NCBI GenBank assembly: GCA_964372855.1
Contig: CAYJRY010000003.1
Span: 848 to 51,720 of the forward strand
Reading direction: 5' to 3'
DNA: 50,873 bases
Source: an uncultured Gammaproteobacteria bacterium
GTDB lineage: Bacteria > Patescibacteriota > Microgenomatia > Levybacterales > UBA12049
Position numbers and translations under genes: made by a program. Positions 3,951 through 47,939 of this stretch are shown here, piece after piece. The notes under the pieces are model-generated. The model did no database searches, was not told where the DNA came from, and saw only the letters and a program-made list of their open reading frames with translations. Within the stretch, counting starts at the first letter, position 1. Every line of letters begins with the position of its first letter.

Positions 3951-4250
3951 ATGTTTTTTGCAATCTTTAAGATTTCAGGCCACAGTATGGAGCCCACAAT
4001 TCAGGATAATCAAATGGTTTTTGTAAGCAGACTCCCCTTCTTATTATTCAAGCCAAGAATTGGAGATATTATAGCTTTTAGAAATAAGGATCAGGTGTTT
4101 ATAAAAAGGATTATTAAAATAAATAGTGAAAAATATTTTATAGCTGGAGATAATAAGAAAGATAGTTTTGATAGTAGAAGATTAGGATGGATAGATAAAA
4201 AACAAATTCTTGGTAAAGTAATAATAAATTCCAAATTCAAAAAGTTTTGA
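3951..4250 (+). CDS. sodX: NiSOD maturation protease (S26 signal-peptidase family)
   Basis: SGHSMEPT (Ser box), FIKRII (Lys box) and GDNKKDSFDSRRLGW (box E) are all present. It lies immediately downstream of sodN. The ATG at 3951 is preferred over the TTG at 3933, which overlaps sodN. Confidence 0.85.
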   Translation: MFFAIFKISGHSMEPTIQDNQMVFVSRLPFLLFKPRIGDIIAFRNKDQVFIKRIIKINSEKYFIAGDNKKDSFDSRRLGWIDKKQILGKVIINSKFKKF

Positions 4251-4310
4251 GTTTTGATCATTGGGATTTTGAGCATTATTTAGAATTTGGTGCTTAAGAT
4301 TTAGAATTTT
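4245..4310. repeat. 7-nt-periodic array filling the sodX to methyltransferase spacer
   Basis: Reads in phase as tttgagt|tttgatc|attggga|ttttgag|cattatt|tagaatt|tggtgct|taagatt|tagaatt. Contains the core ATTTGGTGCTTAAGAT, shared with 17986 and 19783. Confidence 0.75.
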
Positions 4311-4315
4311 CTTAT

Positions 4316-4840
4316 ATGTTTTTTTGGATTTTCAATTTAGTATTAATTTTGATAATTATATTTTTGTTGATTTTACTGTCTTGGTTTTGGCCGCCTGATA
4401 GTCCATGGGCGCCATGGTGGAGAACGGATAGAAAAACTGCACGAGCTATGTGTAGATTGGCAAAGGTGGGTAAGAAAGATATTGTTTATGATCTGGGATC
4501 AGGCGATGGAACAGCTCTTATTGTTGCTGCTAAAGAATTTGGCGCTAAGTGCGCTGGAATAGAAATAGATCCGCTTCGAGCAATTCTTTCTACTTTAATA
4601 ATATATATTATTAAAGCGTACGACAAAGTGAAAATTAAGAGAGAAAACTTTTTTAATACTAACATCTCCGAGGCGACAGTTGTATTTGTTTATCTAGTCC
4701 CGAGAGCATTAAATAGACTTTTGCCAAAATTCAAAAAAGAGCTTCGCAAAGGAACGCGAATAGTTAGTTATCGATATGAAATAAACTTACCATTGGAAAA
4801 ATATGATAAAGAAAATAATATCAGGATGTATAAAATTTGA
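4316..4840 (+). CDS. Membrane-anchored class I SAM-dependent methyltransferase
   Basis: N-terminal hydrophobic segment. Motif I 'VYDLGSGDGTALIVAA' followed by 'GIEIDP' (acidic post-I). Confidence 0.7.
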   Translation: MFFWIFNLVLILIIIFLLILLSWFWPPDSPWAPWWRTDRKTARAMCRLAKVGKKDIVYDLGSGDGTALIVAAKEFGAKCAGIEIDPLRAILSTLIIYIIKAYDKVKIKRENFFNTNISEATVVFVYLVPRALNRLLPKFKKELRKGTRIVSYRYEINLPLEKYDKENNIRMYKI

Positions 4841-4844
4841 ACGT

Positions 4845-5912
4845 TTAAAATTTAAGTTTCAAAAAAAACCAACGTATTTTATCTAAGAATTTATACACCT
4901 GATAAAGAAGGAAATTTACAACAAGATCATAACTTCCGATAAATTCTACAAGTTGCGGTCCATATCCTTGCTTGAATCTATGAAATCCATACCATGGATC
5001 TTTGGGGTCAGGCGTTGGGCCGAGCGAACCCCACATATCAAATCTTTTTAATCCTAATTTTTTGCCAAATTTAATTACTTCCCACATCATAAGATTTGAT
5101 GCCATAACTTCTCTATAATGAGTTGATGATGCGCCATATGGATAATAAAGAGTGTCACCATAAACAAAGACGATCCAAGCCACAAGAGGTATTGGTTGTT
5201 GGCTATTAATTTTTGGTTGATAGTTTGCTAGAAATAAATGGGCAGTGAGTTTATCTTTATCTAAATTTCCCATCTTCGATTTTCCCTGTCTCACCATCAG
5301 GCGGGTATTTTCCATTTTCCGAGGACTTAAGGCTTCCCACATCAATCTATGATAGTTTTCTGTATGCGCATAGAAGCCCTGACGTTTAGTTGTTTCTTTG
5401 GTTAGTTTTAGATACGTTTCAAATGCATCATCAGAGTTATCCTCAACTATTTTTACACCATGTTTTAGCGCAACCCTTATATTGTATCGAGTCTTAGGAT
5501 GCATATCAGCCAGCAGCTCTTGTTCACTTTTGGTAAGATCCAAGATAAAAGTATATCTTGTAAATAACGGATGCGCTGCTGGCTGCAATTTCCAATTTCC
5601 AATTTCCAATTTCCAATCATTTTGAGATTTGGGATTTGAAATTTGAGATTTTTCGATGTTTGGTTCCAATTGAATAAAAATGCATTTTTCCTGTTTTCCA
5701 ATTTCTATTAATTTAGTCAACATTTCTTTATCTGGAAGTGGGCCTTTTGGTATATAACCGATAGTCCAAGGAAGGTGGGCCTTGCCTGCCGGCAGGCAGG
5801 GGATTTTGTGAATAGTTAATTGAAAATTCTTTTCTCTAATTACTTTAATTCCTGTTTTTTGCCTAAATTCACCCCACTGCCTTGACTGAAGAGGATGTAT
5901 ATTCATAACCAT
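4845..5912 (-). CDS. FemAB-family peptidyltransferase (peptidoglycan cross-bridge formation type)
   Basis: N-terminus 'HPLQSRQWGEFRQKTG' and C-terminal 'GASSTHYREVMASNLMMWEVIKFGKKLGLKRFDMWG..GFHRFKQGYG' match the FemAB/lipid II aminoacyl-transferase pattern. Confidence 0.75.
   Translation of the reverse strand: MVMNIHPLQSRQWGEFRQKTGIKVIREKNFQLTIHKIPCLPAGKAHLPWTIGYIPKGPLPDKEMLTKLIEIGKQEKCIFIQLEPNIEKSQISNPKSQNDWKLEIGNWKLQPAAHPLFTRYTFILDLTKSEQELLADMHPKTRYNIRVALKHGVKIVEDNSDDAFETYLKLTKETTKRQGFYAHTENYHRLMWEALSPRKMENTRLMVRQGKSKMGNLDKDKLTAHLFLANYQPKINSQQPIPLVAWIVFVYGDTLYYPYGASSTHYREVMASNLMMWEVIKFGKKLGLKRFDMWGSLGPTPDPKDPWYGFHRFKQGYGPQLVEFIGSYDLVVNFLLYQVYKFLDKIRWFFLKLKF
5586..5653. repeat. Composite double heptamer array inside the FemAB-like CDS
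   Basis: (caatttc)x4 + caatcat + tttgaga|tttggga|tttgaaa|tttgaga, with the 7-nt phase kept across the junction. Translates in frame to KSQISNPKSQNDWKLEIGNWKLQ. Confidence 0.85.
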
Positions 5913-7720
5913 TCTGTATTTTCGGTTTTTTCAATCTTAAATCCATATAGGTTTTTTTCAAGTACTTCTTGCGGAAGCTCCAGGACAAAACGTGAAACAA
6001 TATTTGAAGTCCTTTGTCCAAAAAATAACCTTTTTTGGGAATAGCTTAAAAAAAGTTTTTGCTTTGCCCTGGTCATTCCCACATAGCAAAGTCTTCTTTC
6101 TTCTTCAAGTTCCTGTTTTTCCATAAGACTTCTGCTATGTGGAAACAATCCTTCTTCCATACCAATCATAAATACAACCGGGAATTCTAACCCTTTTGCA
6201 GCATGAAGTGTCATAAGTGTTATTGCATTTTTCTTAAACCCATTTGACTTGGGATGATCAGGCAGGTATTCTTGCTCAACAAGCGCAACATTTTCCAAAA
6301 ATTGTGATAAATTTGGAAATTCAATAGCAACAGAACGAAGCTCTTTGATATTTTCGAGTCTTTCCTGATCTTGCGGATCATGTTCGTCGTAAAGAGTTAA
6401 ATATTCAGTTTTTTTTAAGACCTCATCTAAAATTTCAATGGTGGGTTTATCGCTAAAGCGTTTTTGAAATTCAAGAAATTTCTGAAGTCTACCTTTTCCC
6501 AGCTTTTCAATTCGTTTTAATGACACTTTGTCTTTGGGGTTTGAAAGTACTCGTAAATATGAAAGCACATCTTTTATTTCGCGTCTTTCATAAAATCGTG
6601 TTCCTCCAATTAAAAGATATGGTATTCCATGATGCAGAAAAACTTCCTCCAGCACTCTTGATTGCGCGTTTGTTCTATATAAGACTGCAATGTCAGAAAG
6701 GGAATATCCTTGAATTTGCCGCAAGATAAATTCTACTTCATCTTGCTCGTTTCTTGCTTCATAAATAACAATATCTTCTCCATTTTCATTTTCTGTCCAA
6801 AGCTTAAGTACTGGATGAGTTGTATTTTTAGCAATTACAGAAGAGGCCGCATCCAGAATTTTTTGCGTTGATCTGTAGTTTTGTGATAAAGAAAATATTT
6901 TTGTGTCGTTGAAATCTTCTCTAAATTTACTAAGATTGGTAAAATCTGCGCCTCGCCAAGAATAAATGCTTTGAGAAAAGTCTCCAACAACACATATATT
7001 TTTATATTTACTTGCCAAGAGTTTTGTAAGAGAATATTGAGCATGATTGGTATCTTGGTATTCATCAATTAAGATATATTTATATTTATTTTGGTATTTA
7101 TCCAAAACTTCATTGTAGCTTTCAAAAAGATAAACTGTTTTTAGTAATAAATCATCAAAATCAAGCGCATGATTTTCCTTAAGCAATCTTTGGTAGACAG
7201 GATATATTCTTGCGACAATTTCTTGGAAATTCCCTCTTGCAACTTTTGAATATTCAGTTTCTGTTATTAGCTCATTTTTTGCTTGGGAGATGCTTGCTAA
7301 GATAGATGATGGTTTGTAATCTCTAATAGAAATATTTATCATTTTCATAGCTTCTTTTATTACATCTAATTGATCTTGAGTGTCATATATTGCAAAATCG
7401 GCAGGAATCCCAATGTGTATTCCATCCAGTCTTAATATTTTTGCGCATAGGGAATGAAATGTTGATATTGTTACCGAACCTGAGCTTGGAATTGCTCTTT
7501 GGACTCTTTCTTTCATTTCGTTTGCGGCTTTATTAGTGAATGTGACCATTAGGATATTAAAAGGATCTATGTTTTTTTCTTGAATTAGATATATGACTTT
7601 ATGCGTTAATACTCTTGTTTTCCCGGATCCTGCACCTGCTAGAATTATTATTGGACCGTCAGCGTGTTTAACGGCACGAGATTGATCTTTATTTAAGTCC
7701 TTGAAGATATCTTTGCGCAT
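5903..7720 (-). CDS. UvrD/PcrA/Rep-family ATP-dependent DNA helicase (short form, 605 aa)
   Basis: Walker A 'AGAGSGKT', motif II 'IDEYQDTN', 'TLHAAKGLEF' and 'YVGMTRAK'. Confidence 0.9.
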   Translation of the reverse strand: MRKDIFKDLNKDQSRAVKHADGPIIILAGAGSGKTRVLTHKVIYLIQEKNIDPFNILMVTFTNKAANEMKERVQRAIPSSGSVTISTFHSLCAKILRLDGIHIGIPADFAIYDTQDQLDVIKEAMKMINISIRDYKPSSILASISQAKNELITETEYSKVARGNFQEIVARIYPVYQRLLKENHALDFDDLLLKTVYLFESYNEVLDKYQNKYKYILIDEYQDTNHAQYSLTKLLASKYKNICVVGDFSQSIYSWRGADFTNLSKFREDFNDTKIFSLSQNYRSTQKILDAASSVIAKNTTHPVLKLWTENENGEDIVIYEARNEQDEVEFILRQIQGYSLSDIAVLYRTNAQSRVLEEVFLHHGIPYLLIGGTRFYERREIKDVLSYLRVLSNPKDKVSLKRIEKLGKGRLQKFLEFQKRFSDKPTIEILDEVLKKTEYLTLYDEHDPQDQERLENIKELRSVAIEFPNLSQFLENVALVEQEYLPDHPKSNGFKKNAITLMTLHAAKGLEFPVVFMIGMEEGLFPHSRSLMEKQELEEERRLCYVGMTRAKQKLFLSYSQKRLFFGQRTSNIVSRFVLELPQEVLEKNLYGFKIEKTENTEWL

Positions 7721-7777
7721 AACGTATAATTAATAGTATTGTCATTCTGACAATGAAACTTATTGTCATTTTACCAC

Positions 7778-8479
7778 ATGAGAAAGTTTTATATTATCGC
7801 TAATTGGAAATCGAATAAGACATTATCAGAGGCTGAAGATTGGATTGAGGGATTAAAGATTAAAGATTTAGAATTAATGAGTAAAGAAGCTATTGTTTGT
7901 CCTTCATTCACAAATCTTTCAATTCTTAAATCATTAATCATTAATCACAAATCAAATATTAAATTGGGGGCGCAGGATATTTCTCCGTTTGATGAAGGAG
8001 CCTTTACTGGAGAAGTCAATGGTAAACAAATCAAAGAATTCGCTGATTATGTGATTGTTGGCCATTCAGAAAGAAGAAATAATTTTGGAGAAGACGATGG
8101 AACAGTGAATCAAAAGTTAGATCGGGCTTTAAAATATGAACTCACTCCAATATTATGTGTTTCAAATCTTGATCAAGTTCAAAGTTCAAAATTCAAAGTT
8201 CAAAGTTACAGTTCAAAGTTCAAAATTGCGGAAATAATGTTAATAGCCTACGAGCCACTCTTTGCAATTGGGTCAGGAAATCCAGATACACCAGAGAACG
8301 CAGATAAGATGGCAAAAAATATAAAAGAAATTTTAGGTGAAATTCCAGTTTTGTATGGAGGAAGCGTTGATAAAAATAATGTCAAAAGTTTTACGACTAT
8401 GCCCAATATTGATGGAGTTTTGGTTGGAAAATCTAGTCTTGATGTCAAAGAATTTACGCAAATTATTCATAACTCGTAA
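7778..8479 (+). CDS. tpiA: Triosephosphate isomerase
   Basis: ANWKSN (Lys), GHSERR (His), AYEPLFAIGSG (Glu loop) and YGGSV. The ATG at 7778 is preferred over the TTG at 7763. Confidence 0.9.
   Translation: MRKFYIIANWKSNKTLSEAEDWIEGLKIKDLELMSKEAIVCPSFTNLSILKSLIINHKSNIKLGAQDISPFDEGAFTGEVNGKQIKEFADYVIVGHSERRNNFGEDDGTVNQKLDRALKYELTPILCVSNLDQVQSSKFKVQSYSSKFKIAEIMLIAYEPLFAIGSGNPDTPENADKMAKNIKEILGEIPVLYGGSVDKNNVKSFTTMPNIDGVLVGKSSLDVKEFTQIIHNS
8175..8224. repeat. GTTCAAA heptamer array inside tpiA
   Basis: gttcaaa|gttcaaa|attcaaa|gttcaaa|gttaca|gttcaaa|gttcaaa. Encodes VQSSKFKVQSYSSKFK between the 'ILCVS' strand and 'IAYEP'. The stretch 8175-8208 matches 20003-20036 at 33 of 34 positions. Confidence 0.9.
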
Positions 8480-9683: not shown

Positions 9684-10379
9684 ATGGATAATCCGCAAGA
9701 ACAATTACAAGCACAACAGCCGACGAATCCAACGCCATCGCAGGTTAATTCATCTCGCAAATCAATTATTATTCCTCTTGGTCTTGGAATACTTTTTGTA
9801 TTAATTACTATTGGTGCTTATCTTTTGGGAACAAGACAAAGTCAGACAGTCGTCCAAAACCAACAAAACCAAGTCATACCAACCTCAATCCCAACTCCAA
9901 TCCCCGATGAGACTGCGAACTGGACGACATATAAAAGCACTCAGTTGCCTGAAAATTCGCTTAAGGCATATTCTATTAAACATCCAACTGACTGGAATTT
10001 AAAGATAGATACAGATAAAATTGGATATCATAAATTAACACTCTCAAAACAGAACCATTTAATTACAATTTTTCAGGATGCCTTTGGTGGTGGCGGATGT
10101 ATATTTGAAGGTGAAGTTCCTGAAGGACCATATGGTGATTATAGGAATAAAAAATACACACAAATTGAATCTGGGATTGGGACACTACGAAGGCTTGAGC
10201 TAGATACTCAAACAAATAATCCTAATGTGACTACCTTCGGTTTTTGTATTAGCACTGATGGCAAAAATTATGGTAGTCCGACACATATTGGTATCATCAC
10301 ATACGAGGTACCTAAAAACTATAATCAAATATTAATTGATGAGATGGATAAAATTATCAAAACTGTAGCAATAGAATAA
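9684..10379 (+). CDS. Hypothetical membrane-anchored exported protein
   Basis: Q/P-rich N-terminus and one TM segment (IIIPLGLGILFVLITIGAYLL), then a ~170-aa domain with no motif I recognise. The ATG at 9684 is preferred over the TTG at 9618. Confidence 0.5.
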   Translation: MDNPQEQLQAQQPTNPTPSQVNSSRKSIIIPLGLGILFVLITIGAYLLGTRQSQTVVQNQQNQVIPTSIPTPIPDETANWTTYKSTQLPENSLKAYSIKHPTDWNLKIDTDKIGYHKLTLSKQNHLITIFQDAFGGGGCIFEGEVPEGPYGDYRNKKYTQIESGIGTLRRLELDTQTNNPNVTTFGFCISTDGKNYGSPTHIGIITYEVPKNYNQILIDEMDKIIKTVAIE

Positions 10380-10490: not shown

Positions 10491-10516
10491 ACTTTAATAA
10501 TATATATTATTAAAGT
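10491..10516. terminator. Perfect 26-bp AT-rich palindrome between convergent genes (candidate bidirectional terminator)
   Basis: actttaataatat|atattattaaagt is perfectly self-complementary. A second inverted repeat, cactctaat-N10-attagagtg, sits at 10534-10561. Confidence 0.35.
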
Positions 10517-10554: not shown

Positions 10555-13080
<2,526 letters not shown>

Positions 13081-13081
13081 A

Positions 13082-13621
13082 TCAGGAAAACATTTCAGGA
13101 AGAGTTTTGATAGCAAAAAGATTTTTTCCTAAGTTTTTTTTGATTTTTTTATTCAACCAGAAAAATTTAGTTTTAGCATTATTCTGTGCTAGGTACTTTA
13201 AGAGGTGAAGATCATCGTCAACATACATATCAATTTTGAGCTTTTGGATAATTTCATTTTTAAATATATGCGCTTGTTTGTTTTCAAAATTAAAATATAA
13301 ATCTTCAAAAAGTTTGTTAAGTTGGTGTTTTTTGACAAGATGCAAAGTTTTTTCTTTTAAAAAACCAAGCCTACTTGAAATTAGATAATGTTTGTGTGTA
13401 TTTTTGGATGCCAAATCTTTCATAAATTCTACATTTTCTTTAATTGGCTGGCGAAGAAATGGATGGTGAATCAGTAGGCGAAGCATTTGTTCGGGTTTGT
13501 TGGGAATCCTATAAATAAGCTGCCCATTTGCTTTTTTCTTGTAAAGTCTGTCTATTATAAAATCTGGGAGAAAAAATGGATAATCAATAAAAACTTTGTC
13601 AAGATCAAATCCAATATTCAT
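13082..13621 (-). CDS. HAD-superfamily-like hydrolase (putative phosphatase)
   Basis: FDLDKV (DxDxV motif I), LISSR (motif II Ser) and MYVDDD (motif IV) in the right order within a 179-aa protein. Confidence 0.5.
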   Translation of the reverse strand: MNIGFDLDKVFIDYPFFLPDFIIDRLYKKKANGQLIYRIPNKPEQMLRLLIHHPFLRQPIKENVEFMKDLASKNTHKHYLISSRLGFLKEKTLHLVKKHQLNKLFEDLYFNFENKQAHIFKNEIIQKLKIDMYVDDDLHLLKYLAQNNAKTKFFWLNKKIKKNLGKNLFAIKTLPEMFS

Positions 13622-14723: not shown

Positions 14724-16259
14724 TTAATTTATTCTTTTTATTTCGTAAGTCCAAAAAGAAGGAGAATTGTCGACACCATTGAAAAAGTGCTGTTCTTTAC
14801 CATATGGATAAGTATACTTAATTTTACTCATTGAAGGAGAATTTGGCGGCATAATGTATACTATATTTTTAGAAGTTGAATTAGAAATAGGAATTACTTG
14901 TTCTGAATTATCTATATCAACTCCTTCTAATTCAGGATTAATGAATCGTATTGTCCCATGATTGAAATAAAGCCATGTATTTTCGCGAAGCATGTAAACC
15001 TTCCAGTTTAGGCCTAGATTTTTTAGATAGTAAGCGATTTGTGTTGCTGGTTCTCTTTGAGCCCAACCATCCTTTGAGCGTATATAATCATTAAAATAAA
15101 TTTTATAATCCCAAAATCCATTAATGACGAAAATCATAATTAATATTAATTTTAAAAAACGAATTTTATATCTTAGAAACTCTTCAATGGTTATGCCAGC
15201 AAAGAGAAAAAGCACCGGTATAAGTCCTACTAGTCTTTGACTTGATGGAGGATCTATAGTAATTGTCCCGCCGAAAAGTATAATAACAAAAAACCAAATC
15301 AGCAATAATTGCGATTTATTACTTTTATATTTAAAAAAAGATATTAATAATCCCCCAATAGTAAAAAATCCAATAATTGGGGCAAGTAATCCTTTTTGAT
15401 ATCCATAAAAGTAAAAACCAATATCTCCACCGAAATTAAATACTTTTAATGTATTTATAAATTGCCAGAATAAAACACTTGGGACATTATCTGTATTGTA
15501 GCGCTTGTAATACTCATCAAGATGATTAAATACGGAAACTTCATTGAGCCGAGGTGAGTAGGTGCCAGGATTTGAAAAATAATAAATACCTTGCGGTAAA
15601 AAAACGACCCCTGCAGTTATAAAAATGAAAAATATTTTCTTAAAAACTAATATTTTTTTTCTATTTTGAATAATAAATATAAAGGTAAAAACTCCTACAA
15701 TTATAGGGAGAGCTTTTGTTGTATGGTGAAAATATAAAGATAATCCAAGAAATATACCTGCAATTATTGCATTTATATAATTTTGTTCTTTAATTGTCCT
15801 ATACAAAAAATAAATAATAATACATGCAAAAAGAGGCGTCCAAATATTTGAAAGGGCAAGCCTACTATATGCAATGTGATAATGGGATGTTGCAAATGAT
15901 AAAGCTATAAGCAATATAATCAGTTTATTTTGAAATATTAATTTTGCCAAGATAATAAAAAAAATAATCGTAAGAAATCCTGCAAATGCAGATGATGATC
16001 GAATACCAAACACAGTATCTCCAAAAATTCTAAGAAATAAACCTTGAACCTTATAACTCAGTATTGAAAAATCAAAATACTGTCCAATATTACCGAGTGA
16101 GAAAAAACTAGTATATTCTCCTCTGTTCACTTTTTGTTCTATAAGTCCCCACTCTGCCTCATCTCCATGAATCCCGGGAGGAATATGTCCAAGATCATAG
16201 AATCTTAGAGTAAATGCTAGTATCAAAATAAGAAATAAAGCAATCCAATAAACCCTCAT
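14724..16259 (-). CDS. GT-C fold membrane glycosyltransferase (GT39/ArnT/PMT-like)
   Basis: About 12 TM segments. First-loop acidic motif 'GIHGDEAEWG' after TM1 'LRFYDLG'. Soluble C-terminal domain. Confidence 0.7.
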   Translation of the reverse strand: MRVYWIALFLILILAFTLRFYDLGHIPPGIHGDEAEWGLIEQKVNRGEYTSFFSLGNIGQYFDFSILSYKVQGLFLRIFGDTVFGIRSSSAFAGFLTIIFFIILAKLIFQNKLIILLIALSFATSHYHIAYSRLALSNIWTPLFACIIIYFLYRTIKEQNYINAIIAGIFLGLSLYFHHTTKALPIIVGVFTFIFIIQNRKKILVFKKIFFIFITAGVVFLPQGIYYFSNPGTYSPRLNEVSVFNHLDEYYKRYNTDNVPSVLFWQFINTLKVFNFGGDIGFYFYGYQKGLLAPIIGFFTIGGLLISFFKYKSNKSQLLLIWFFVIILFGGTITIDPPSSQRLVGLIPVLFLFAGITIEEFLRYKIRFLKLILIMIFVINGFWDYKIYFNDYIRSKDGWAQREPATQIAYYLKNLGLNWKVYMLRENTWLYFNHGTIRFINPELEGVDIDNSEQVIPISNSTSKNIVYIMPPNSPSMSKIKYTYPYGKEQHFFNGVDNSPSFWTYEIKRIN

Positions 16260-18007
16260 AAAGAATTATAATTTTGGAATATCAATATTTTTGGGTGGTC
16301 ATAGACAGTAAATGATTCATCGGCGCTTTGGTCATTAATTGAGATGTTTAAAAATGGAATCGTTGGAGGATTTTCAAACTCAGCGACTTTCCTGTATCCC
16401 AATTCTCCGTTAAAAAGCCTTTGGTAATATTTATTGGCATTATGAGAGCATTTGTCTTTGGGAAGAATCCATTTTTGACAATTTTTATAAATCCTCTGAA
16501 GTGGAGTATATAAGCGGTTGCTGGCGATAATTATATAATCTGCCTCTTGAACTTTTTGGTAAATTTCTCTCTCCAAAGAAGGATCAGACATTCCGTAAAT
16601 AGGAAGTTCCAAAGTTTTATAGATAATATTTCCACCAATCGGCATCCCATCGTCCCAATGTTCGATAGCTAGAGTTTTGTCAGAGGGAATATTTTCATAA
16701 ATCCATTCCGAGGCCAAAACACGAGTGTTTGGTCTGGTATAGATATTCATGAAAGACAAAGGCCAAACTAATAAGAAAGTATAAAGTATTAAGTATAAAG
16801 TATTAAGTATAAAATTGGATTTAATGCGATGCCTTAGATATTTATATATTTGATAAATAAAAACCGCAGCAAAAATGGCTAAAAGAGGATATAGAGGAAG
16901 CAAGTAGCGCATCCAACCAACCGCGAAGTTGCCAACGATAATGAAATAGGTTAAGAAAAATAATAATATTATAATTGTTCCATTATTCCATTGTTTCATT
17001 GTTTTATAACAGACATAAAAAATTCCTAAGAAAGAAGGCATTGCGAGTATAGGGCCTAATCCCCATAAAAACATATTTTTTAATTCGTACCAATATGGAA
17101 TTTTTCCAACATATTGTAATGTATAGGGAAAAGTGAATGCATCGTATGTCATTTTTCTTTGCTCATTACTTTGTTTCCAAAATTCTTGAAAGTCAATAAG
17201 CGCGTAAGGTTGAAATATTGCAAAAGTTATAATGGTAACAACAATAATCGTTAAACCATCAATTATTAGTCTTTTCAAAAAACTTGGCACATGTGGGAAC
17301 CAAATATGAGGCTTATGTGGTTGTTTTAGGAAAATGAGTATAAAATCAACAGTAATTGCGGCAAAAATTGCAACTACAAGAGGAATAGCACTAATTTTTG
17401 TTACAAGCGACAATCCAAAACATACACCAACAATAGCTGCGTTTTTACGTGAAGGTTTTTCATAGAATCGTATAAGTTGAAAAAGTGTAAGGGTTATAAA
17501 AAATGTCAAAAGTGTATCTACAGCATAGAAATGCGCTGTTTGGATAGGAAATACTGATATTGCATAAAAAAAAGAGGCAAGAAGTGCTACTTTACTATTA
17601 AATAATTTTTTGGCAATTAGAAAAATTATAAAAATTGTTCCAATGTCTGCGATTCCTGAGATAGCTCTTCCGACCAGATTTATTTTGTCGTAAGAAAGAT
17701 ATAAAGGGTCAAAGTTTGCTAAAAAAGACGCGGTTATTTTAAGTAAATAAAGTGGAAAATTACCATAAGCAAAAAAATGAGGATTTAATGGACTTTCAGT
17801 ACTTAAAAATTCTTCAAGACTGTTGGGAAATTCAAGAGGCATTGCAAACATTACGATCGCTCGTTCATCAGGATGAAGATGGTGACCTTGATCCCAATTT
17901 AATCCATAGAATCTTAAAAAACTAGCCAAGCAAAGTATAGCAATCAAATACAGTAATTGTATTTTGATATTATTTAGAATTTGAAATTTAGTGCTTAGGA
18001 TATTCAT
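16256..18007 (-). CDS. GT-C fold membrane glycosyltransferase (GT39-like), tandem paralog 1
   Basis: 'LRFYGLNWDQGHHLHPDE' first-loop motif. Polytopic. The C-terminal 'ADYIIIASNRLY..LFNGELGYRKVAEF..ADESFTVYDHPKILIF' is shared with the next gene. Confidence 0.7.
   Translation of the reverse strand: MNILSTKFQILNNIKIQLLYLIAILCLASFLRFYGLNWDQGHHLHPDERAIVMFAMPLEFPNSLEEFLSTESPLNPHFFAYGNFPLYLLKITASFLANFDPLYLSYDKINLVGRAISGIADIGTIFIIFLIAKKLFNSKVALLASFFYAISVFPIQTAHFYAVDTLLTFFITLTLFQLIRFYEKPSRKNAAIVGVCFGLSLVTKISAIPLVVAIFAAITVDFILIFLKQPHKPHIWFPHVPSFLKRLIIDGLTIIVVTIITFAIFQPYALIDFQEFWKQSNEQRKMTYDAFTFPYTLQYVGKIPYWYELKNMFLWGLGPILAMPSFLGIFYVCYKTMKQWNNGTIIILLFFLTYFIIVGNFAVGWMRYLLPLYPLLAIFAAVFIYQIYKYLRHRIKSNFILNTLYLILYTFLLVWPLSFMNIYTRPNTRVLASEWIYENIPSDKTLAIEHWDDGMPIGGNIIYKTLELPIYGMSDPSLEREIYQKVQEADYIIIASNRLYTPLQRIYKNCQKWILPKDKCSHNANKYYQRLFNGELGYRKVAEFENPPTIPFLNISINDQSADESFTVYDHPKILIFQNYNSL
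16779..16813. repeat. AGTATWA x5 heptamer array inside the GT-C CDS
   Basis: agtataa|agtatta|agtataa|agtatta|agtataa. Encodes part of a TM-like stretch, ILNTLYLILYTFLL. Confidence 0.8.
17973..18001. repeat. Heptamer array forming the first ~11 codons of the GT-C CDS
   Basis: tttagaa|tttgaaa|tttagtg|cttagga. Contains the core ATTTAGTGCTTAGGAT (17986-18001), related to 4285 and 19783. Confidence 0.7.
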
Positions 18008-18024
18008 AGCCGATATTAAAAAGG

Positions 18025-19716
18025 TTATTCAGTAAATCTAGCATACTCTTCTCTAGTTAATTGTTTCTTTTTCTCAAAAACTCTTATCACTGGATGGTCA
18101 AAAACACTCCAGGTTTCTTCAGCTTCTTCATCAGGAAACTCTATTTTTAATCCAAAAAAAGATAGTTTTGGGAATGAACTAAATTCTTTTATTTTCTCAA
18201 ATCCTAAATTCCCATCGAATAACGAATCATATACTTTAGCAGTTTTTGGATAAAAATTTTTAAGTCTTTGATGATTGTAAAATACTCGTCTACTTTGCAC
18301 TAAGAAATAATCAGATGAATATAAAGCGTCAATAATTTTTTCTCTTGTTAAGATATCTTTTTCTAAGGCATAAAAATCCAATGAGATTCTTTGAAAATTA
18401 CCATTAAGAGGTAGATCAACAGTATTTCCTCCCTCAACTAAAATGTTCGAACCAGGTTTCAAATAAGATTCTAACCATCTCGACGCAGTTATTCGAACAT
18501 CTGGATTATCATAAATTGAAAAAAACGTTATAGCCCAAATAAAACTAAAAGTAGCTACTGCAAAAGATAATAAGTAGCCTAAAGTTTTCATTTTGTTTGT
18601 AAGTTGGCATAAGAAATACGCTGAGAAAATTGAAAAAAAAGGGAAAGTTGGGGCAATAAATCTAGTCCATTTTGCGAAAAGAAAAGCATTTGGTAGGAAC
18701 AGAGACAGTAATACAATTATAATTAGAATTAGAATAAAAATTAACGTATTGTTAAATTGCTTCGTTGCTTTATTGTTGTAGATTTCTGAGATAATTCTTA
18801 CAATAAGATAGATAAATCCTAAAATCCCAAAAATATAAAGAGATGGGCCTAAGGTATAAGGGAAGATTTTTTCTAGCTGAAACAATACGGGAGTGGTGTT
18901 GATAAATTGCCTTGTGTAAAAAACTGGTATTTTTCCAATTGCCAGTCCTCCTTCATAATCAACATTTCCCTTGAAGGCTTTGTAGTCAAGAAAAACATAA
19001 GGCGCAACAATTGCAAATGTGGCAAAGGCAATAACTATATTTATTAATAATAAACTACTAAATTTTAGCGTGGTTTTTAAGAATGATTTTAGATGAGATT
19101 TGTTTTTAGAATATGATTTGAATAAGATAGCTAAAATAAAAGGCAATACAAGAACAATAGAGCTTATTTTTACTCCTAACGCGAAACCAAAAGATATTGA
19201 TGAGAAGACAATAAAAAGTAATTTGTTGTTCTGTAGAAATTTTATCATTAAAAGTAAAGACAATAGTAAAAAAAATATTAGAGTAGATTCTGGCGTAGCA
19301 AAATGAGCCTGTTGAATAAGTCCGGCTGTTATAGCAACAAAAAAAGCTGCAAGAAGAGAAAATCTCTTATCCATAAAAGCTCTTGAGATTTTATAAATAA
19401 GGAAAATAGTTAAAGTAGAAAACAGAGCTGAATAAAATCGTCCAATTAAGAAAGGATTAAATATTTGACTAATAGAGTTAAGTAATTCTTTCGTGAAATA
19501 GATTAGATAGATAGTTACTGTTCCGTATGAAAAAAAGTGGGGATGCATTTGGTCAGGGTATGATAATTGATTAACAGAAGCAACTATATGATATTCATCA
19601 GGATGAGTATATAAACCTTCTCCCCAATCAAGTTTATAGAAGCGAAAAAAAGCACCTATCAGTATAACAAGGAATATAATGATTAACGAGCGATGTTTTT
19701 TAATGATGTAGAGCAT
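18025..19716 (-). CDS. GT-C fold membrane glycosyltransferase (GT39-like), tandem paralog 2
   Basis: 'FRFYKLDWGEGLYTHPDE' motif. Polytopic. C-terminal 'SDYFLVQSRRVF..LFDGNLGFEKIKEF..AEETWSVFDHPVIRVF' is paralogous to 16256-18007. Confidence 0.7.
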   Translation of the reverse strand: MLYIIKKHRSLIIIFLVILIGAFFRFYKLDWGEGLYTHPDEYHIVASVNQLSYPDQMHPHFFSYGTVTIYLIYFTKELLNSISQIFNPFLIGRFYSALFSTLTIFLIYKISRAFMDKRFSLLAAFFVAITAGLIQQAHFATPESTLIFFLLLSLLLMIKFLQNNKLLFIVFSSISFGFALGVKISSIVLVLPFILAILFKSYSKNKSHLKSFLKTTLKFSSLLLINIVIAFATFAIVAPYVFLDYKAFKGNVDYEGGLAIGKIPVFYTRQFINTTPVLFQLEKIFPYTLGPSLYIFGILGFIYLIVRIISEIYNNKATKQFNNTLIFILILIIIVLLSLFLPNAFLFAKWTRFIAPTFPFFSIFSAYFLCQLTNKMKTLGYLLSFAVATFSFIWAITFFSIYDNPDVRITASRWLESYLKPGSNILVEGGNTVDLPLNGNFQRISLDFYALEKDILTREKIIDALYSSDYFLVQSRRVFYNHQRLKNFYPKTAKVYDSLFDGNLGFEKIKEFSSFPKLSFFGLKIEFPDEEAEETWSVFDHPVIRVFEKKKQLTREEYARFTE

Positions 19717-19775
19717 ATAAATTTCTAAAATCTATTTGACCTAATTTCTAATAAATGACTTATGTCTAAATACCC

Positions 19776-19831
19776 AATTGGTATTTGGTGCTTGGGATTT
19801 ATTTAGAAATTAGTAATTAAGAATTAGTCAA
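19776..19831. repeat. 7-nt-periodic array spanning the FAD-oxidoreductase stop and the spacer upstream of the GT-C gene
   Basis: aattggt|atttggt|gcttggg|atttatt|tagaaat|tagtaat|taagaat|tagtcaa. Core ATTTGGTGCTTGGGAT at 19783-19798. Confidence 0.7.
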
Positions 19832-21106
19832 TATTAATTTTGCTACTTTTTCTCCTAACTCAACTGCGTAGTTGGTTCCCCTATCCCAAGGGTAGACTTG
19901 TTGTATATTAGCAAGGTAGACATTCTTAAGTGGTGTTTCAAATGGAGGAATAATTTTTGAATAATTGAGCGGGATTATAGGCTGAGCAAAAGGAACCTTA
20001 AAAAGTTCAAAGTTCAAAATTAAAAGTTCAAAGTTAGGATTTATCCTTTTTAGATAAGGGGTATAGACTTTTAAGAGTTCGGGAGCACTCATTTTCATAT
20101 ACGGATGGTCATAGGGAAGATAATTACCCAAATATACAATATGTTCATTATCGTAATATTTCTTATCCATAAAGTTAGTGTGTTCGACAATTGCCATTAT
20201 AGGCGAATCTTTATCGCAGATATTTAGCCAGTAAGTCCCATCTTTGAGGAATGGTTGTTTTAAACGAAGAATTAAATTGATTGCGCCTATACCCTTCAAA
20301 TTCATAAGTTTATTTTTGTAAACTTGCGGAAGATGTGGTGCAATTTTTAGGAAGTGAAATGAAGGAAGCGTTGCAATAACTTTGTCATAATTTTCCATTT
20401 TCCACCTTCCATTTTCCATTTTATACTTTATTTGTACACCAATTTCTTGCGCATCTATTTCTTCTACTTGAGTATTAAAAAAAACTTTTCCTCCTAATTT
20501 CTCGATTTTCTTAACAAGGATATTTGCGAACTCCAAAAAACCTCCTTTCGGATAACTTAAAGTTGACGTTCTTTTATTTATTCTCGCCCAAAACCATGCA
20601 AGGGAAATATCATCTTTATAATTTCCAAATTTTTTGGTAAATAGAGGATTCCATATCATTTCATAGCTACTTTTACCCATTATTTTTGGAAGAAAATCAG
20701 TAGCCTTAATATTTTCTAATGTCTGCCAAAAAGGGTTGTATTTCAAGGAAGCTAGAGCAAATGCCATACGAACACGATCAAAAATAGGCAATTTCGGAAA
20801 AGCCAGTAATGATTTTACCGAGTCTAGCTGATAAATTAAATTATTAATTAAAGTGGATGTTTTTGGACGTTTTGTAATGACTTCAAAATTTAGTTCTTTC
20901 GCTAAATTGAGCGTAGAATAGTCATTTGTAAACCAGTGATGATAATGTTTTTCCAAAGACCAATTCCATTTGGGTAATTTAAAGCCAACAGCCAATCCAC
21001 CAGGATTTTCATCTTTTTCAAATAAAGTTAAAGTATTGCCTAATTTTGATAGGTAGTAGGCTGCCGATAGTCCGGTAAAACCAGCACCAATTATTGCAAT
21101 TTTCAT
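19817..21106 (-). CDS. FAD/NAD(P)-binding oxidoreductase (amine-oxidase/PPOX/phytoene-desaturase-like fold)
   Basis: 'MKIAIIGAGFTGLSAAYYLSKLGNTLTLFEKDENPGGLA' is a dinucleotide-binding GxGxxG...E...GG motif. The length (429 aa) is typical of the family. Confidence 0.8.
   Translation of the reverse strand: MKIAIIGAGFTGLSAAYYLSKLGNTLTLFEKDENPGGLAVGFKLPKWNWSLEKHYHHWFTNDYSTLNLAKELNFEVITKRPKTSTLINNLIYQLDSVKSLLAFPKLPIFDRVRMAFALASLKYNPFWQTLENIKATDFLPKIMGKSSYEMIWNPLFTKKFGNYKDDISLAWFWARINKRTSTLSYPKGGFLEFANILVKKIEKLGGKVFFNTQVEEIDAQEIGVQIKYKMENGRWKMENYDKVIATLPSFHFLKIAPHLPQVYKNKLMNLKGIGAINLILRLKQPFLKDGTYWLNICDKDSPIMAIVEHTNFMDKKYYDNEHIVYLGNYLPYDHPYMKMSAPELLKVYTPYLKRINPNFELLILNFELFKVPFAQPIIPLNYSKIIPPFETPLKNVYLANIQQVYPWDRGTNYAVELGEKVAKLILTNS
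20003..20038. repeat. GTTCAAA heptamer array inside the FAD-oxidoreductase CDS
   Basis: agttcaa|agttcaa|aattaaa|agttcaa|agttagg. Matches the tpiA array at 33 of 34 positions on the same DNA strand, but here the gene is on the opposite strand, so it encodes NFELLILNFELF. Confidence 0.9.
20391..20418. repeat. TTTTCCA heptamer array inside the FAD-oxidoreductase CDS
   Basis: ttttcca|ttttcca|ccttcca|ttttcca. Encodes KMENGRWKMEN, which compares with 11143-11170. Confidence 0.85.
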
Positions 21107-29564: not shown

Positions 29565-29866
29565 ATGGCAAATAATAAAAATTTAACTTACAAACCACTT
29601 TTTGACAATGTCTTTATAAAACCTCTTGAAGCTGAGTCAAAAACAAAAAGTGGAATTATTCTTCCAGATTCTGTAAAAGAAAAACCTCAAATTGGCCTTG
29701 TAATGGCAGTTGGTCCTGGTAAAATAACATCAGATGGGAAACTTAATCCAATGGTTGTTAAAAAGGGACAGAAAGTTATGTATAAAAAATGGGGCGGTAA
29801 TGAAGTAAAAGTGAATGGTGAGGAATGGACAATGGTTAGTCAAGAAGATATACTTGCAGTAGTAAG

Positions 29867-29870
<4 letters not shown>
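29565..29870 (+). CDS. groES: Co-chaperonin GroES
   Basis: 'KPLFDNVFIKPLEAESKTKSGIILPDS' contains the mobile loop. 101 aa, directly upstream of groEL. Confidence 0.95.
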
Positions 29871-31587
<1,717 letters not shown>

Positions 31588-31589
31588 AA

Positions 31590-31617
31590 ATATCAAAAAT
31601 TAAATATCAAATATCAA
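31590..31617. repeat. ATATCAA-type heptamer array starting 3 nt after the groEL stop
   Basis: atatcaa|aaattaa|atatcaa|atatcaa. Confidence 0.8.
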
Positions 31618-31620
31618 AAA

Positions 31621-31645
31621 TTTTCCCCGAAAGGGGATTTTTAAT
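31621..31645. terminator. Short GC hairpin with a T-tract between convergent genes (groEL terminator, possibly bidirectional)
   Basis: ttttCCCCgaaaGGGGattttt. It overlaps the stop codon of the minus-strand gene 31641-32555. Confidence 0.55.
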
Positions 31646-43965: not shown

Positions 43966-43967
43966 GT

Positions 43968-44504: not shown

Positions 44505-44531
44505 GTCATTCTGAACAAAGTGAAGAATCTC
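44505..44531. repeat. Solo arm of the GTCAT-type repeat in the hrcA 5' leader
   Basis: gtcattctgaacaaagtgaagaatctc. No complementary arm was seen before the hrcA ATG at 44553. Confidence 0.5.
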
Positions 44532-45281: not shown

Positions 45282-45324
45282 AAGTAGTATTAAATATTAA
45301 AAATAAAATACAAAAATAACAAAT

Positions 45325-45888: not shown

Positions 45889-45895
45889 CATGATA

Positions 45896-45967
45896 ATGTC
45901 ATCCTGAACGAAGTCGAAGGATCCCATGAATAAATAAAAAGATTCTTCGTTGCACTCAGAATGACAT
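45896..45967. repeat. GTCAT-type hairpin element in the grpE-dnaK spacer
   Basis: atgtcatcctgaacgaagtcgaaggatc...gattcttcgttgcactcagaatgacat. The termini atgtcat/atgacat are perfectly complementary. Same family as 12385-12450. Confidence 0.8.
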
Positions 45968-45981
45968 AAGAATAGGAATAT

Positions 45982-47913
45982 ATGGGAAAAATTATTGGAA
46001 TAGATTTAGGTACTACCAATTCATGCGTTGCGGTAATGGAGGGTGGAGCTCCCAAAGTCATCCATTCACTAGAGGGAAGGAATGTAATTCCTTCAGTTGT
46101 TGATCCTATAAGCCATATAGTTGGTGACGTTGCAAAACGCCAGTTAGTTCTAAAGCCTAAGCGAACAATTTTCTCTATAAAGCGATTGATGGGTCGTAAG
46201 CTTACTGATCCGTCGGTTCAGTTTGACATGAAATGGCTTCCTTATACGATCAAATCAGGCCGCGATGGAATGGCAGTTGTTGAGGTTGAAGGAAGAACAT
46301 TTACTCCACAGGAGATTTCAGCAATGATTCTTCAGAAAATAAAAGGCGATGCTGAGAGTTATTTGGGCGGAAAAGTTACACAAGCAGTCATTACAGTTCC
46401 TGCGTATTTTGACGATTCTCAGCGTCAAGCTACCAAACAAGCTGGGGAAATTGCAGGACTTGAGGTTTTAAGAATTATTAATGAGCCCACAGCATCAGCT
46501 TTAGCTTATGGACTTGACAAGAAAAATGCCCATACAGTTGCTATATATGATTTGGGTGGAGGAACTTTTGATATCTCTGTTCTTGAGTTAGGTGAAGGAG
46601 TATACGAGGTAAAATCAACAAATGGAGATACACATTTAGGCGGAGATGACTTTGATCAGGTAATTATAAATCATATTGCAGAAGAGTTCAAAAAGCAAAA
46701 TGGTATCGACCTAAGAAAAGACCCTCAAGCTTTACAAAGACTTCGAGAATCTGCGGAAAAAGCAAAAATTGAATTGTCAAGTTCTCAGCAAGCAGAAATC
46801 AATCAGCCATTTATAACTCAAGGAAAAGAAGGTCCTCTACATCTTACAATGACTTTAACTCGTGCCAACCTTGAGAAATTAGTGGATCAGCTTATTCAAA
46901 AAACACTTAAACCAGTTGAGCAAGCATTAAAAGATGCGAAAATAACAGCGTCAGACATTGATGAGGTCGTATTGGTTGGCGGAATGACTAGAATGCCAAA
47001 GGTGATTGAGGTTGTTTCAAAGTTTTTTGGCAAAGAACCCAATAAATCAGTTAATCCAGATGAGGTTGTCGCAGTTGGCGCAGCAGTCCAAGCAGGCGTA
47101 TTAGGAGGAGAGGTAAAAGACGTGTTGCTATTGGATGTGACTCCTTTGACTTTGGGAATTGAAACATTAGGCGGAGTTTCAACACCTTTAATTTCTAAAA
47201 ACACAACAATCCCAACTTCTAAATCTCAAGTATTCTCAACTGCGGGAGATAACCAAACCCAAGTTGAGATAAATGTTTTGCAAGGTGAGCGTCCAATGGC
47301 AATTGATAACAAAAGCCTAGGAAGGTTCATATTAAGTGGTATTCCGCCAGCGCCACGTGGTATTCCTCAAATTGAAGTAACTTTTGATATTGACGCAAAT
47401 GGGATTTTAAATGTGAAAGCAAAAGATAAAGCAACTGGGAAAGAACAAAGCATCAAGATTACTGGTTCAACAGGTCTTTCTAAAGATGAAGTTGAAAGAA
47501 TGACCAAAGAGGCAGAAGCTCATGCCGCTGAGGATCAACAGAAGAAAGAAAAAATTGAAGCAAGAAATGCAGCAGATTCATTAATTTTTACCGCAGAAAA
47601 ATCAATTAAAGATGCGGGAGATAAGATTGACATAGGTGCTAAGAAAGAAGTTGAGGAAAAGATTTCTTCTCTCAAATCCATTCTTGATAGTGGTACAAAA
47701 GAAGATTTAGAGGCAAAGACAAAAGATCTGTCAGATAGTCTTCAAAAAATTGGTCAGGCAATGTATGGCTCATCGCAACAGACAACTCCCAACAACCAAC
47801 AAACAACAGGAGATAGTCAACAAGGCCCGGGAACTGGTGAACAAAAAACTGAAGGAAAGGGAGAAAAGAAAAAAGACAAAGACGAGCCGATTGAGGGCGA
47901 AGTAGTGAACTAA
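45982..47913 (+). CDS. dnaK: Molecular chaperone DnaK (Hsp70)
   Basis: '[13 protein letters not shown]', 'DLGGGTFD' and '[10 protein letters not shown]'. 643 aa. Confidence 0.97.
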
Positions 47914-47918
47914 ATTAA

Positions 47919-47939
47919 ATATCAAAAATCAAATATCAA
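47919..47939. repeat. ATATCAA-type heptamer array 6 nt after the dnaK stop
   Basis: atatcaa|aaatcaa|atatcaa, identical to lepA nt 26432-26452. Confidence 0.85.

Follow-up and report, generated by a model that had tools for sequence, protein, structure and literature searches.

Period-7 Tandem Arrays Inside and Between Genes of a Levybacteria-Related Contig and a Dispersed Palindromic Element Built of Heptamers

Heptamer Arrays at the Locus

The stretch analyzed here, called the window, comprises 50.9 kb (33% G+C) of contig CAYJRY010000003.1 and carries short tandem arrays of 7-nt units (heptamers) both between genes and, in frame, inside genes; some of these arrays are arms of a palindromic element that is dispersed over non-orthologous loci. 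The nearest relatives of the window are metagenome-assembled genomes (MAGs) of Candidatus Levybacteria: the helicase encoded at 5903-7720 shares 72% identity with a Candidatus Levybacteria MAG protein, and the gene order is kept. This agrees with an initial annotation, made from the sequence alone, which had called the genome similar to those of the candidate phyla radiation (CPR) and had listed heptamer arrays at 15 loci. L-numbers (L001 etc.) denote compared DNA loci and P-numbers (P0046 etc.) compared proteins.

Twelve of the 15 loci proved convincing. Self-identity at a lag of 7 nt was 0.71-0.89 at 5586, 8175, 11143, 11361, 11961, 16779, 20003, 20391, 26425, and 31590 and 0.64 at 29867, and the array at 47919 is short, with about 3.3-4.3 units. 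At 4245, 17973, and 19776, in contrast, the repeats are degenerate, with lag-7 identities of 0.46-0.50 that scarcely exceed those at lags 6 and 8. Further arrays, missing from the original list, were found at 5621-5651, 7851-7887, 7927-7954, and 11729-11831. Ten of the listed loci lie in six open reading frames (ORFs) and leave the frame intact, as had been claimed, and the peptides read from them (KSQISNPKSQ, SKFKVQS.SSKFK, and ISNIKNQISNI) are present. The genes, arrays, and palindromes are collected in Table 1.

Table 1. Genes with in-frame arrays, heptamer arrays, and heptamer palindromes of the window.
Feature	Positions	Strand	Remarks
FemAB-like gene	4845-5912	-	Pfam; array in frame
TIM (triosephosphate isomerase) gene	7763-8479	+	Pfam; array in frame
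DUF2298 gene	10555-13116	-	Pfam; arrays in frame
PMT_2 glycosyltransferase gene	16256-18007	-	Pfam; arrays in frame
Amine-oxidase-type flavoprotein gene	19817-21106	-	Pfam; arrays in frame
LepA gene	25597-27345	+	Pfam; array in frame
Element copy E1, in frame in DUF2298	11355-11490	-	Encodes NPKHEARNPKQYQNTNDKNSKRIEHSVFENLNLFRVSSFEFRIS; includes array 11360-11392
Element copy E2, in frame in DUF2298	11955-12085	-	Encodes ISNFKAQNPKQYQNSNEQITKTFLNFVNLNLLRISNFEFRIL; includes perfect (AAATTCG)4.3 at 11961-11990
Second kind of heptamer palindrome, in frame in DUF2298	11715-11846	-	Arms (AAAATGA)n / (TCATTTT)n
Degenerate intergenic element copy	4222-4312		Just upstream of DOT1-like methyltransferase gene (4316-4840); covers locus 4245
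Two abutting arrays, FemAB-like gene	5586-5617; 5621-5651	-	(CAATTTC)4.6 + (TTTGAGA)4.4; encode KSQISNPKSQNDWKLEIGNWKL
Two short imperfect arrays, N-terminal part of TIM	7851-7887; 7927-7954	+	GATTAAA; AATCATT, the latter encoding KSLIINHKS
Array in TIM, helix-5 position	8175-8224	+	(AAGTTCA)7.3; encodes QVQSSKFKVQSYSSKFK
Array in DUF2298 loop	11142-11172	-	(ATTTTCC)4.4, gene-strand (GGAAAAT)4; encodes NGKWKMENGK
Array in PMT_2 gene	16776-16813	-	(AAAGTAT/AAGTATT)5.4, 14-nt super-period; encodes NTLYLILYTFLL
Degenerate heptamer-like stretch, 5' end of PMT_2 gene, weak	17969-18008	-	Lag-7 identity 0.46; 73% similar to 4275-4314 (family D16)
Degenerate heptamer-like stretch in and just past spacer 19716-19817, weak	19776-19826		Lag-7 identity 0.50; family D12 with 4280-4303
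Array in amine-oxidase-like gene	20002-20035	-	(AAAGTTC)4.9; encodes NFELLILNFELF
Array in amine-oxidase-like gene	20390-20422	-	(ATTTTCC)4.7; encodes MENGRWKMEN
Array in LepA	26424-26456	+	(AATATCA)4.7; encodes ISNIKNQISNI; family D5 with 31585 and 47907
Hairpin of TTAGCGT-type units, groES-groEL spacer	29864-29938		DNA fold -15 kcal/mol, z = -2.6
Array filling the gap from groEL stop codon to bidirectional terminator hairpin (31623-31637)	31588-31618	+	(AAATATC)4.4
Array directly 3' of dnaK stop, before GC-rich hairpin	47912-47941	+	(AAATCAA/ATATCAA)4.3

Excess of Period 7

Tandem Repeats Finder returned more than 17 rows with period 7 for the window, and in a lag-match scan exact self-matches of at least 14 nt occurred at lag 7 only. 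When mismatches were tolerated, the window gave 8 strong period-7 arrays and a set of 30 dinucleotide shuffles gave none; no array was obtained at periods 4-6, 9-13, or 15, period 8 yielded one, and period 14 yielded four, which are harmonics. In 608 kb of Levybacteria-like loci we counted 70 period-7 arrays, while the non-harmonic periods 4-6 and 8-13 gave 0-12 arrays each. A single period-7 array was present in 423 kb of loci of distant DUF2298 homologues, and the 12 arrays in 1.1 Mb of diverse bacteria were similar in number to those of their periods 9, 12, and 15. The arrays noted by the initial annotation are therefore real, with an excess over shuffled sequence and over other periods that Levybacteria-like loci share and that distant homologues and diverse bacteria lack. 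The periodicity was also apparent in the encoded proteins: 120 DUF2298 homologues contained 47 stretches with a 7-aa period compared to 2-11 for periods 3-12, and the peptides KSQITNHKSQI, KLEIGNWKLEI, and FRISNFEFRIS were seen repeatedly among them.

Period 8 was, with 12 arrays, the second commonest non-harmonic period in the Levybacteria-like loci; the window holds one such array, (ATTGTTCC)3.8, at 16974-17003 in the PMT_2 gene.

Base composition is not the cause of the excess, because L002 and L006 are as A/T-rich as the window and yet have no period-7 arrays. The low G+C content of the genome and the 7-residue periodicity typical of coiled coils could suggest a compositional or chance artefact, or selection for heptad peptides at the protein level, but this explanation is already refuted by the empty shuffles, the array-free A/T-rich relatives, and the counts by lineage. 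Moreover, arrays also lie between genes and in contigs of 50-68% G+C, and periodicity of a protein does not demand a 7-nt periodicity of its DNA.

The units themselves are diverse, with 48 canonical types among 90 arrays. Clustering them with rotation, strand, and one mismatch allowed produced a giant component of 42 units compared to 34 ± 5 in the null, which is indistinguishable from random A/T-rich heptamers; a shared motif is neither supported nor refuted. The loose consensus WNWTCNA put forward earlier mixes strands and did not prove robust.

A Dispersed Palindromic Element

Within the DUF2298 gene, the segments 11355-11490, 11715-11846, and 11955-12085 are each a long imperfect hairpin with arms made of heptamer runs. 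They folded with z-scores between -3 and -5.6, and all three are absent from the orthologues in L002, L005, and L006. Two of them, E1 and E2, are copies of one element, a palindrome of about 110-160 nt with arms of AAATNNN heptamers and their complements, and share 79% identity over 117 nt. The E1 hairpin reached -41 kcal/mol as RNA, with z = -4.6 and -5.6 for the two strands and z = -3.0 as DNA; for E2 the RNA fold had z = -3.3 (+ strand). E1 was placed in the family by alignments A4 and A6, and E2 has orthologous copies in L001, L083, and L085, in which the outer four units are imperfect or of another unit. The third segment, 11715-11846, is an inverted repeat (I1) with 64-nt arms that are 70% complementary and have no spacer (RNA z = -3.4, - strand); it is an insertion also with respect to L001, and it has a relative in L085 (5180-5277).

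Outside DUF2298, the degenerate locus 4245 turned out to be covered by an intergenic copy (RNA fold z = -2.7, + strand). The element model matched 4225-4311 on both strands in nhmmer, blastn matched this segment to copies in L081, L083, L085, and L092, and in L092 the copy is orthologous, standing before the same DOT1-like methyltransferase gene. In the FemAB-like gene, the segment 5586-5651 is an insertion or variable loop compared to the orthologues. It reads left arm, ND, right arm and gave a weak nhmmer match to the element model (E = 9.5e-4), and is probably a short, internally deleted copy.

Family members were recognized, besides E1 and E2, in L001, L081, L083, L085, L092, L008, L009, L010, and L161, and nine of the copies align in A4. 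Their consensus hairpin has 35 pairs, 9 of which are changed on both sides. A hidden Markov model of the encoded peptide found 71 copies at four loop sites in 52 of the 120 DUF2298 homologues; intergenic copies occur at at least four loci, 4222-4312 included, and the non-orthologous loci with the element number 7 or more. The presence of the element varies between close homologues: a protein-level comparison of P0046 and P0149, DUF2298 proteins that are otherwise about 96% identical, revealed a 34-aa element-coded segment in only one of the two. At DUF2298 site B, some homologues contain the full element (KSQITNHKSQIN...NWNLFGIWNLEFGIL) while others contain KLEIGNWKLEI, the right arm, only; these plain arrays look like solo right arms.

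Direct searches with single sequences returned little. A protein search with the 45-aa E1 peptide had no match, with too few shared words, blastn of E1 against plasmid and phage collections had none either, although its query may have been masked as low-complexity sequence, and Rfam and tRNA scans of the window were without a match.

The element is not confined to the Levybacteria. It was found in Levy-, Curtiss-, and Roizmanbacteria and other Patescibacteria, and on a contig (L189) with proteins that group with those of Candidatus Aminicenantes. Non-identical units follow one another in the same order in the right arm of this Aminicenantes copy and in Levybacteria L083, with about 93% identity over 45 nt, which indicates homology and not convergence; one arm of E1 (about 45 nt compared) is likewise close to the L189 copy. 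In the gatCAB operon of a Patescibacteria contig the element has a perfect (AAATCCC)4.4 array at its start. Searching with a profile of the peptide that the element encodes retrieved 81 tiny ORFs without Pfam domains from many metagenomes, some of them in MAGs labelled Elusimicrobia, Saprospiraceae, and Bacteroidales; these are evidently spurious gene calls on intergenic copies. The densest case was L193, an IMG/VR contig of 60% G+C with a full element copy and 15 period-7 arrays in 7.7 kb. Arrays of (GAAATTG)4 occur in contigs of 51-68% G+C, one of them with the STRR2-like unit TTGGTCA, the ACGCTAA/ACGCTAT unit of the groES-groEL hairpin forms arrays in L081, L104, and L107, and (CAATTTC)n arrays resembling the window's own are present in L164, a contig unrelated to the window. 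While the genome itself belongs to the CPR as proposed, element and arrays thus extend to a wider range of hosts than the CPR setting of the initial annotation.

Placement in Reading Frames and Loops

Since 72 of 82 arrays (88%) lie in ORFs, compared to 93% of the bases, coding DNA is not avoided. In alignments with syntenic orthologues, the genic arrays fell into variable loops that separate conserved blocks. Intergenic arrays are few and fill short spacers adjoining stop or start codons, as between groEL and its terminator or after dnaK.

A unit of 7 nt is not a whole number of codons, and each of its three phases is therefore translated. In every near-perfect, high-scoring genic array the coding-strand unit is free of stops. 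A stop is present in the consensus unit of 21 genic arrays; these are all imperfect, and variant units abolish the stop; at 20003, for instance, the variant third unit turns the in-frame TGA of a perfect array into TTA, and L158 has TGC instead. The arrays therefore show the pattern of a selection filter.

In TIM, the array at 8175-8224 maps to the beta5-alpha5 region of the solved TIM 6bve and makes the segment 8 aa longer than in L001. L091 has AAATTCATAATTC only at this site and is 20-21 nt shorter. The two N-terminal arrays (7851-7954) have the same length as in the orthologues; the AATCATT unit and its peptide KSLIINH also occur in the FemAB-like gene of L001 and in many DUF2298 homologues. 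The TIMs of these Microgenomates are short (about 215-238 aa), with about 12-25 residues between strands 5 and 6 compared to a full helix 5 in solved TIMs. A single-sequence AlphaFold model of the window TIM had a pLDDT of 37 and was unusable.

Change in 7-nt Register

Several sites differ between relatives by whole units. In the DUF2298 loop at 11142, where dozens of homologues have other heptamer peptides, a codon alignment with L001 revealed exactly 21 additional nt (7 aa): four GGAAAAT units stand in place of one CGTAAAT between collinear flanks. A difference of +21 nt was also observed at L089 16628 compared to L002, and of about +21 nt at 8175 compared to L091. The lengths of perfect arrays concentrate at 29-34 nt (4.1-4.9 units); there were none of 3.3-3.6 units and one of 5.6, as would follow from one seed to which three units were added.

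Units were exchanged as well as added. In the FemAB loop the unit depends on the lineage, being AATTGGA in the window and in L084, which has an identical (AAATTGG)4 array, AATTCGC in L001 ((AATTCGC)n), and AATTCAC in L007 ((CAATTCA)n). The outer four units of the element arm are imperfect in L083 and L085 and perfect in the window (AAATTCG) and L001 (AAATCAC). At the amine-oxidase site 20003 the length is equal in all orthologues, and close relatives are 7-periodic while distant ones are not: the DNA is non-periodic in L092, L005, and L101, imperfectly periodic in L113 and L089, and a perfect (TCAGTTG)4 array in L117. Equal length together with graded periodicity indicates that arrays are also homogenised in place. 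Alignment of an intragenic array to non-repetitive orthologous sequence had been named beforehand as a finding that would speak against the arrays; it occurs at 20003, with distant orthologues of equal length, and argues against simple insertion at this site, not against the phenomenon.

Much longer arrays were seen in a Bacteroidales MAG (L191), which at 3044-3190 and 10001-10219 has an intergenic array of about 23 (A/G)GTTCC(G/A) units and a tandem 35-nt higher-order unit of five heptamers. Where the reading frame imposes no constraint, arrays can thus reach a far greater length.

Origin of the Arrays

We favour, with moderate confidence, the reading that the arrays belong to a heptamer-built repeat system in which a dispersed palindromic element, change in 7-nt register, and selection act together. 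The palindromic element, probably a mobile one, is dispersed, with copies in short intergenic spacers and, in Levybacteria, also in frame in tolerant loops of housekeeping proteins. Within element copies and elsewhere, runs of about four heptamers would be amplified, contracted, and homogenised in 7-nt register, most simply by template switching or the mispairing of slipped strands while DNA is replicated or repaired, with hairpins probably favouring the process. The data show the enrichment and its distribution over lineages, the in-frame position in loops, the +21-nt case, the element family with its presence in more than one phylum, and the single presence/absence case; the mechanism of the register change and the means of dispersal are inferred. 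Selection would retain only net length changes divisible by 3 (e.g., +21 nt, that is 3 units or 7 aa), and surviving products would have no stop in any phase and would be located in permissive loops. The outcome would be 7-aa-periodic peptides in conserved proteins, for which we saw no evidence of a host function here. Neither the choice of 7 nt nor the preference for about 4.4 units is explained by this reading. Among the causes first offered by the initial annotation, it retains the mobile element and amplification in 7-nt register, while a structured signal is weakly indicated by the conserved hairpin with its pairs changed on both sides.

A number of observations weigh against the favoured reading, the first of them concerning slippage. 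In 17 of 17 pairs of near-identical DUF2298 proteins there was no difference in length, and no DNA polymorphism in 7-nt steps was seen; slippage is therefore rare or not the mechanism. One array was unchanged between proteins of 90% identity. Of the kinds of variation that the initial annotation had proposed to look for, one presence/absence difference (P0046/P0149) was observed, and none in unit number among the 17 pairs. Intergenic arrays need not keep a frame, and their lengths nevertheless have a peak near about 31 nt (5 of 10), so the preference for about 4.4 units is not due to a frame filter alone. Simple slippage does not predict an increase from 1 to 4 copies in a single step, and frameshifted intermediates in essential genes should be lethal.

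The same evidence bears on purely local replication slippage of heptamers, with nothing mobile and with convergence accounting for the likenesses between loci and phyla. In many prokaryotes heptanucleotides are, according to two sources that follow Mrazek 2007, the commonest of the long simple repeats, for which polymerase slippage and a model of polymerase contact length have been proposed (PMC4679880, PMC4692102), and the +21-nt case at 11142 and the lineage-specific units of a single loop are what such slippage would produce. We nevertheless consider it improbable, because convergence cannot place one element at 7 or more non-orthologous loci, because the Aminicenantes and Levybacteria arms share the order of non-identical units, and because copy number did not vary among near-identical strains.

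The second group of difficulties for the favoured reading concerns copying and dispersal. Arrays at unrelated loci share a variant unit (8175 and 20003; 26420, 31585, and 47907), and arrays 8175 and 20003 agree at 33 of 34 positions, the variant third unit included; the arrays at 20390-20422 and 11141-11172 are 94% identical (family D2). A 31-nt (AAGTTCA AAGTGCA)n array is identical in a Levybacteria locus and a Bacteroidales MAG. Such shared variant units and identical arrays point to copying between loci rather than local birth. No target-site duplication was found flanking E1, E2, or the aligned copies, no defined non-periodic termini were found among the aligned copies, and a Pfam scan of window ORFs revealed neither a transposase nor a reverse transcriptase.

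Copying between loci is central to the view that every array is a whole or partial non-autonomous mobile element, simple arrays being solo arms left after deletion of the internal hairpin, without any local amplification. This is possible but in our judgment doubtful. It is consistent with the solo right arms at DUF2298 site B, the left arm-ND-right arm structure in FemAB, the variant units shared by unrelated loci, the identical arrays and near-identical arms across phyla, the mode of about 31 nt in intergenic arrays, and the P0046/P0149 difference. However, 48 unit types among 90 arrays are difficult to reconcile with it, the exact +21 nt at 11142 uses a unit matching the local seed, the amine-oxidase arrays replace sequence of equal length in a length-conserved segment, and the arrays at 8175, 16776, 20002, and 26424 have no inverse arm nearby; the lack of target-site duplications, fixed termini, and a partner transposase counts against it as well. 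A pure transposon-footprint origin, by 7-bp target duplications and repeated insertion and excision, was rejected, since each step would shift the frame of an essential gene.

A last difficulty is the 34-nt PMT_2 array ATACTTAATACTTTATACTTAATACTTTATACTT, which is 100% identical in the window (16776-16810), L001 (2130-2163), and L084 (7865-7898), with flanks that share about 80% identity or cannot be aligned. It has remained unchanged across three species despite diverged flanks, synonymous positions included, and could reflect constraint on the sequence itself. Such conservation would suit arrays that are selected cis-elements, either DNA or RNA binding sites, for example of a single-strand-binding protein, such as a cold-shock protein, that covers 7 nt, or hairpins acting in termination or mRNA stability. 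The maintained hairpin with pairs changed on both sides and the arrays between stop codon and terminator at groEL and dnaK agree with this, and CspB binds heptamer repeats with one protein per heptamer (PMC4679880). We regard the explanation as very improbable nonetheless: unit sequences differ widely among loci and among orthologous sites, most arrays lie inside unrelated coding regions on either strand, their presence varies among close homologues, and there was no match to an Rfam family. The units were also considered as slippery heptamers (XXXYYYZ) for -1 frameshifting, which was rejected as AAATTTC alone fits.

Going beyond the favoured combination of element, register change, and selection, palindromes and arrays of about 31 nt may constitute one ultra-small mobile system that crosses phyla and has its own mode of copying in 7-nt (or 21-nt) register. 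The copying could proceed, for example, by templated patch synthesis or through an RNA intermediate, and the system would move between phyla and, in CPR bacteria, routinely rewrite loops of essential proteins in frame. We consider this rather unlikely.

If the favoured reading holds genome-wide, Levybacteria and their relatives would possess a steady source of in-frame peptide insertions in TIM, FemAB, LepA, and membrane glycosyltransferases, which would help to explain the frequent odd extra segments of CPR proteins. In the annotation of metagenomes, the palindromic element also gives rise to small spurious ORFs. The system would furthermore be a tractable case for asking why 7 nt is favoured in the long simple repeats of bacteria and by what means tiny elements spread that have no transposase.

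Other Small Repeats of the Window

A GC-rich palindrome of 21 nt (CCTGCCTGCCGGCAGGCAAGG) occurs in the window at 5780-5800, in L161 at 11068-11088, and in L089 at 16111-16131. In the window it lengthens the FemAB-like protein by 7 aa (CLPAGKA), and 8 of 8 orthologues do not have it; in L161 a perfect (AAATCAC)4.4 array is interrupted by the same 21-mer without a target duplication. A variant of its peptide, LPAGKAG, is present in P0077 and P0090. A scan of viral contigs for the palindrome returned mostly GC-rich contigs, in which the hits look like chance palindromes.

Another palindromic family (GTCATCCTGAGC...GAAGGATCC / GGATTCTTCG...CTCAGAATGAC) is represented in frame in DUF2298 (12376-12450), in the grpE-dnaK spacer (45897-45966), and by a half copy upstream of hrcA (44505-44530). 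The first copy adds about 17 aa (VILSKRSASKDSMGFFANTQNDK) to DUF2298, a segment that L001, L002, L005, and L006 do not have, and a related piece is nested in the element copy of P0167. Finally, a perfect palindrome of 25 nt (ACTTTAATAATATATATTATTAAAG) is found twice (pair I3), at 4592-4616 in the methyltransferase-like ORF and at 10492-10516 in the spacer before DUF2298.

Comparison With Known Repeat Systems

The analogies drawn by the initial annotation, with the short tandemly repeated repetitive (STRR) sequences of cyanobacteria and with Rickettsia palindromic elements (RPEs), are apt, as the window contains heptanucleotide arrays of which three to five are arms of RPE-like palindromes inserted in frame. 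Like long simple sequence repeats (LSSRs), the arrays have a 7-nt tandem unit, are longer than composition predicts, and in Levybacteria-like loci exceed the neighbouring periods. Known heptanucleotide families include TAACTGA in Beggiatoaceae (PMC4679880) and GGGAATC/GGGGAYT in Xanthomonas and Nostoc (PMC4692102). With LSSRs and STRRs the window shares short dispersed arrays of 2-7 tandem units, a lineage-specific excess, and the occurrence of some arrays as inverted pairs able to form stem-loops. The units of STRR1-3 are CCCCAGT, TTGGTCA, and CAACAGT. Those of the window are A/T-rich (AAATTGG, AAATTCG, AAAGTTC, AAATATC), and TTGGTCA was found in L164 only, where the classical STRR2-like unit and (CAATTTC)n arrays stand on one contig. 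While STRRs are mainly intergenic sequences of heterocystous cyanobacteria and the published families in general are essentially intergenic, each genome being dominated by one unit or a few, here most arrays lie in frame in ORFs, housekeeping genes among them, and dozens of unit variants with about 4.4 copies occur in a CPR host of the Levybacteria. Phase-variable contingency repeats, in which copy-number changes between close strains turn a gene on or off, do not fit, since the 17 protein pairs are of equal length and the arrays are always in frame in essential genes.

Palindromic elements inserted in frame are known as RPEs in Rickettsia and as MITEs, miniature transposable elements with inverted repeats, in Coxiella (PMC5896051, PMC10969869). 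In form and placement the element resembles both: hairpin-forming palindromes of about 100-150 nt lie in frame in conserved protein genes, at four DUF2298 sites here, are absent from orthologues, and add a peptide in tolerant regions; intergenic copies occur too, and there is no coding capacity of their own. It differs in that the arms are heptamer arrays that become homogenised, that no target-site duplication was seen, and that the family spans phyla and not one genus. The repetitive extragenic palindromes (REPs) and REPINs, which are GC-rich, measure 20-40 nt, bear a GTAG or CGTC tag, and go with a REP-associated tyrosine transposase (RAYT), are different, as the arms here are A/T-rich heptamers and no gene resembling a RAYT was found in the window.

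The 21-nt palindrome resembles the mini-elements among the cyanobacterial small dispersed repeats (SDRs). SDRs of Nostocaceae, as reportedly described by Elhai et al. in 2008, are 21-27 nt long and often embedded in tandem heptamers, and an RNA intermediate or templated patch synthesis is said to have been suggested for them. Correspondingly, CCTGCCTGCCGGCAAGGCAGG, GC-rich and of 21 nt, is nested in a perfect heptamer array in L161 and lies in frame in genes, but its sequence and host lineage are different, and only three copies were seen here.

In Borg elements, recent perfect tandem repeats in genes create disordered protein regions (PMC9879509). The arrays of the window are similar to that extent, being recently formed perfect tandem repeats in genes that add low-complexity peptide segments. 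Borg genic repeats reportedly have units in multiples of 3 nt, while with a unit of 7 nt only triples of units keep the frame and three phases are translated. We found no description of the palindromic element in the searchable literature, nor of the combination of an in-frame palindrome built of heptamers, arrays of about four units in housekeeping genes of CPR bacteria, and an element family that crosses phyla.

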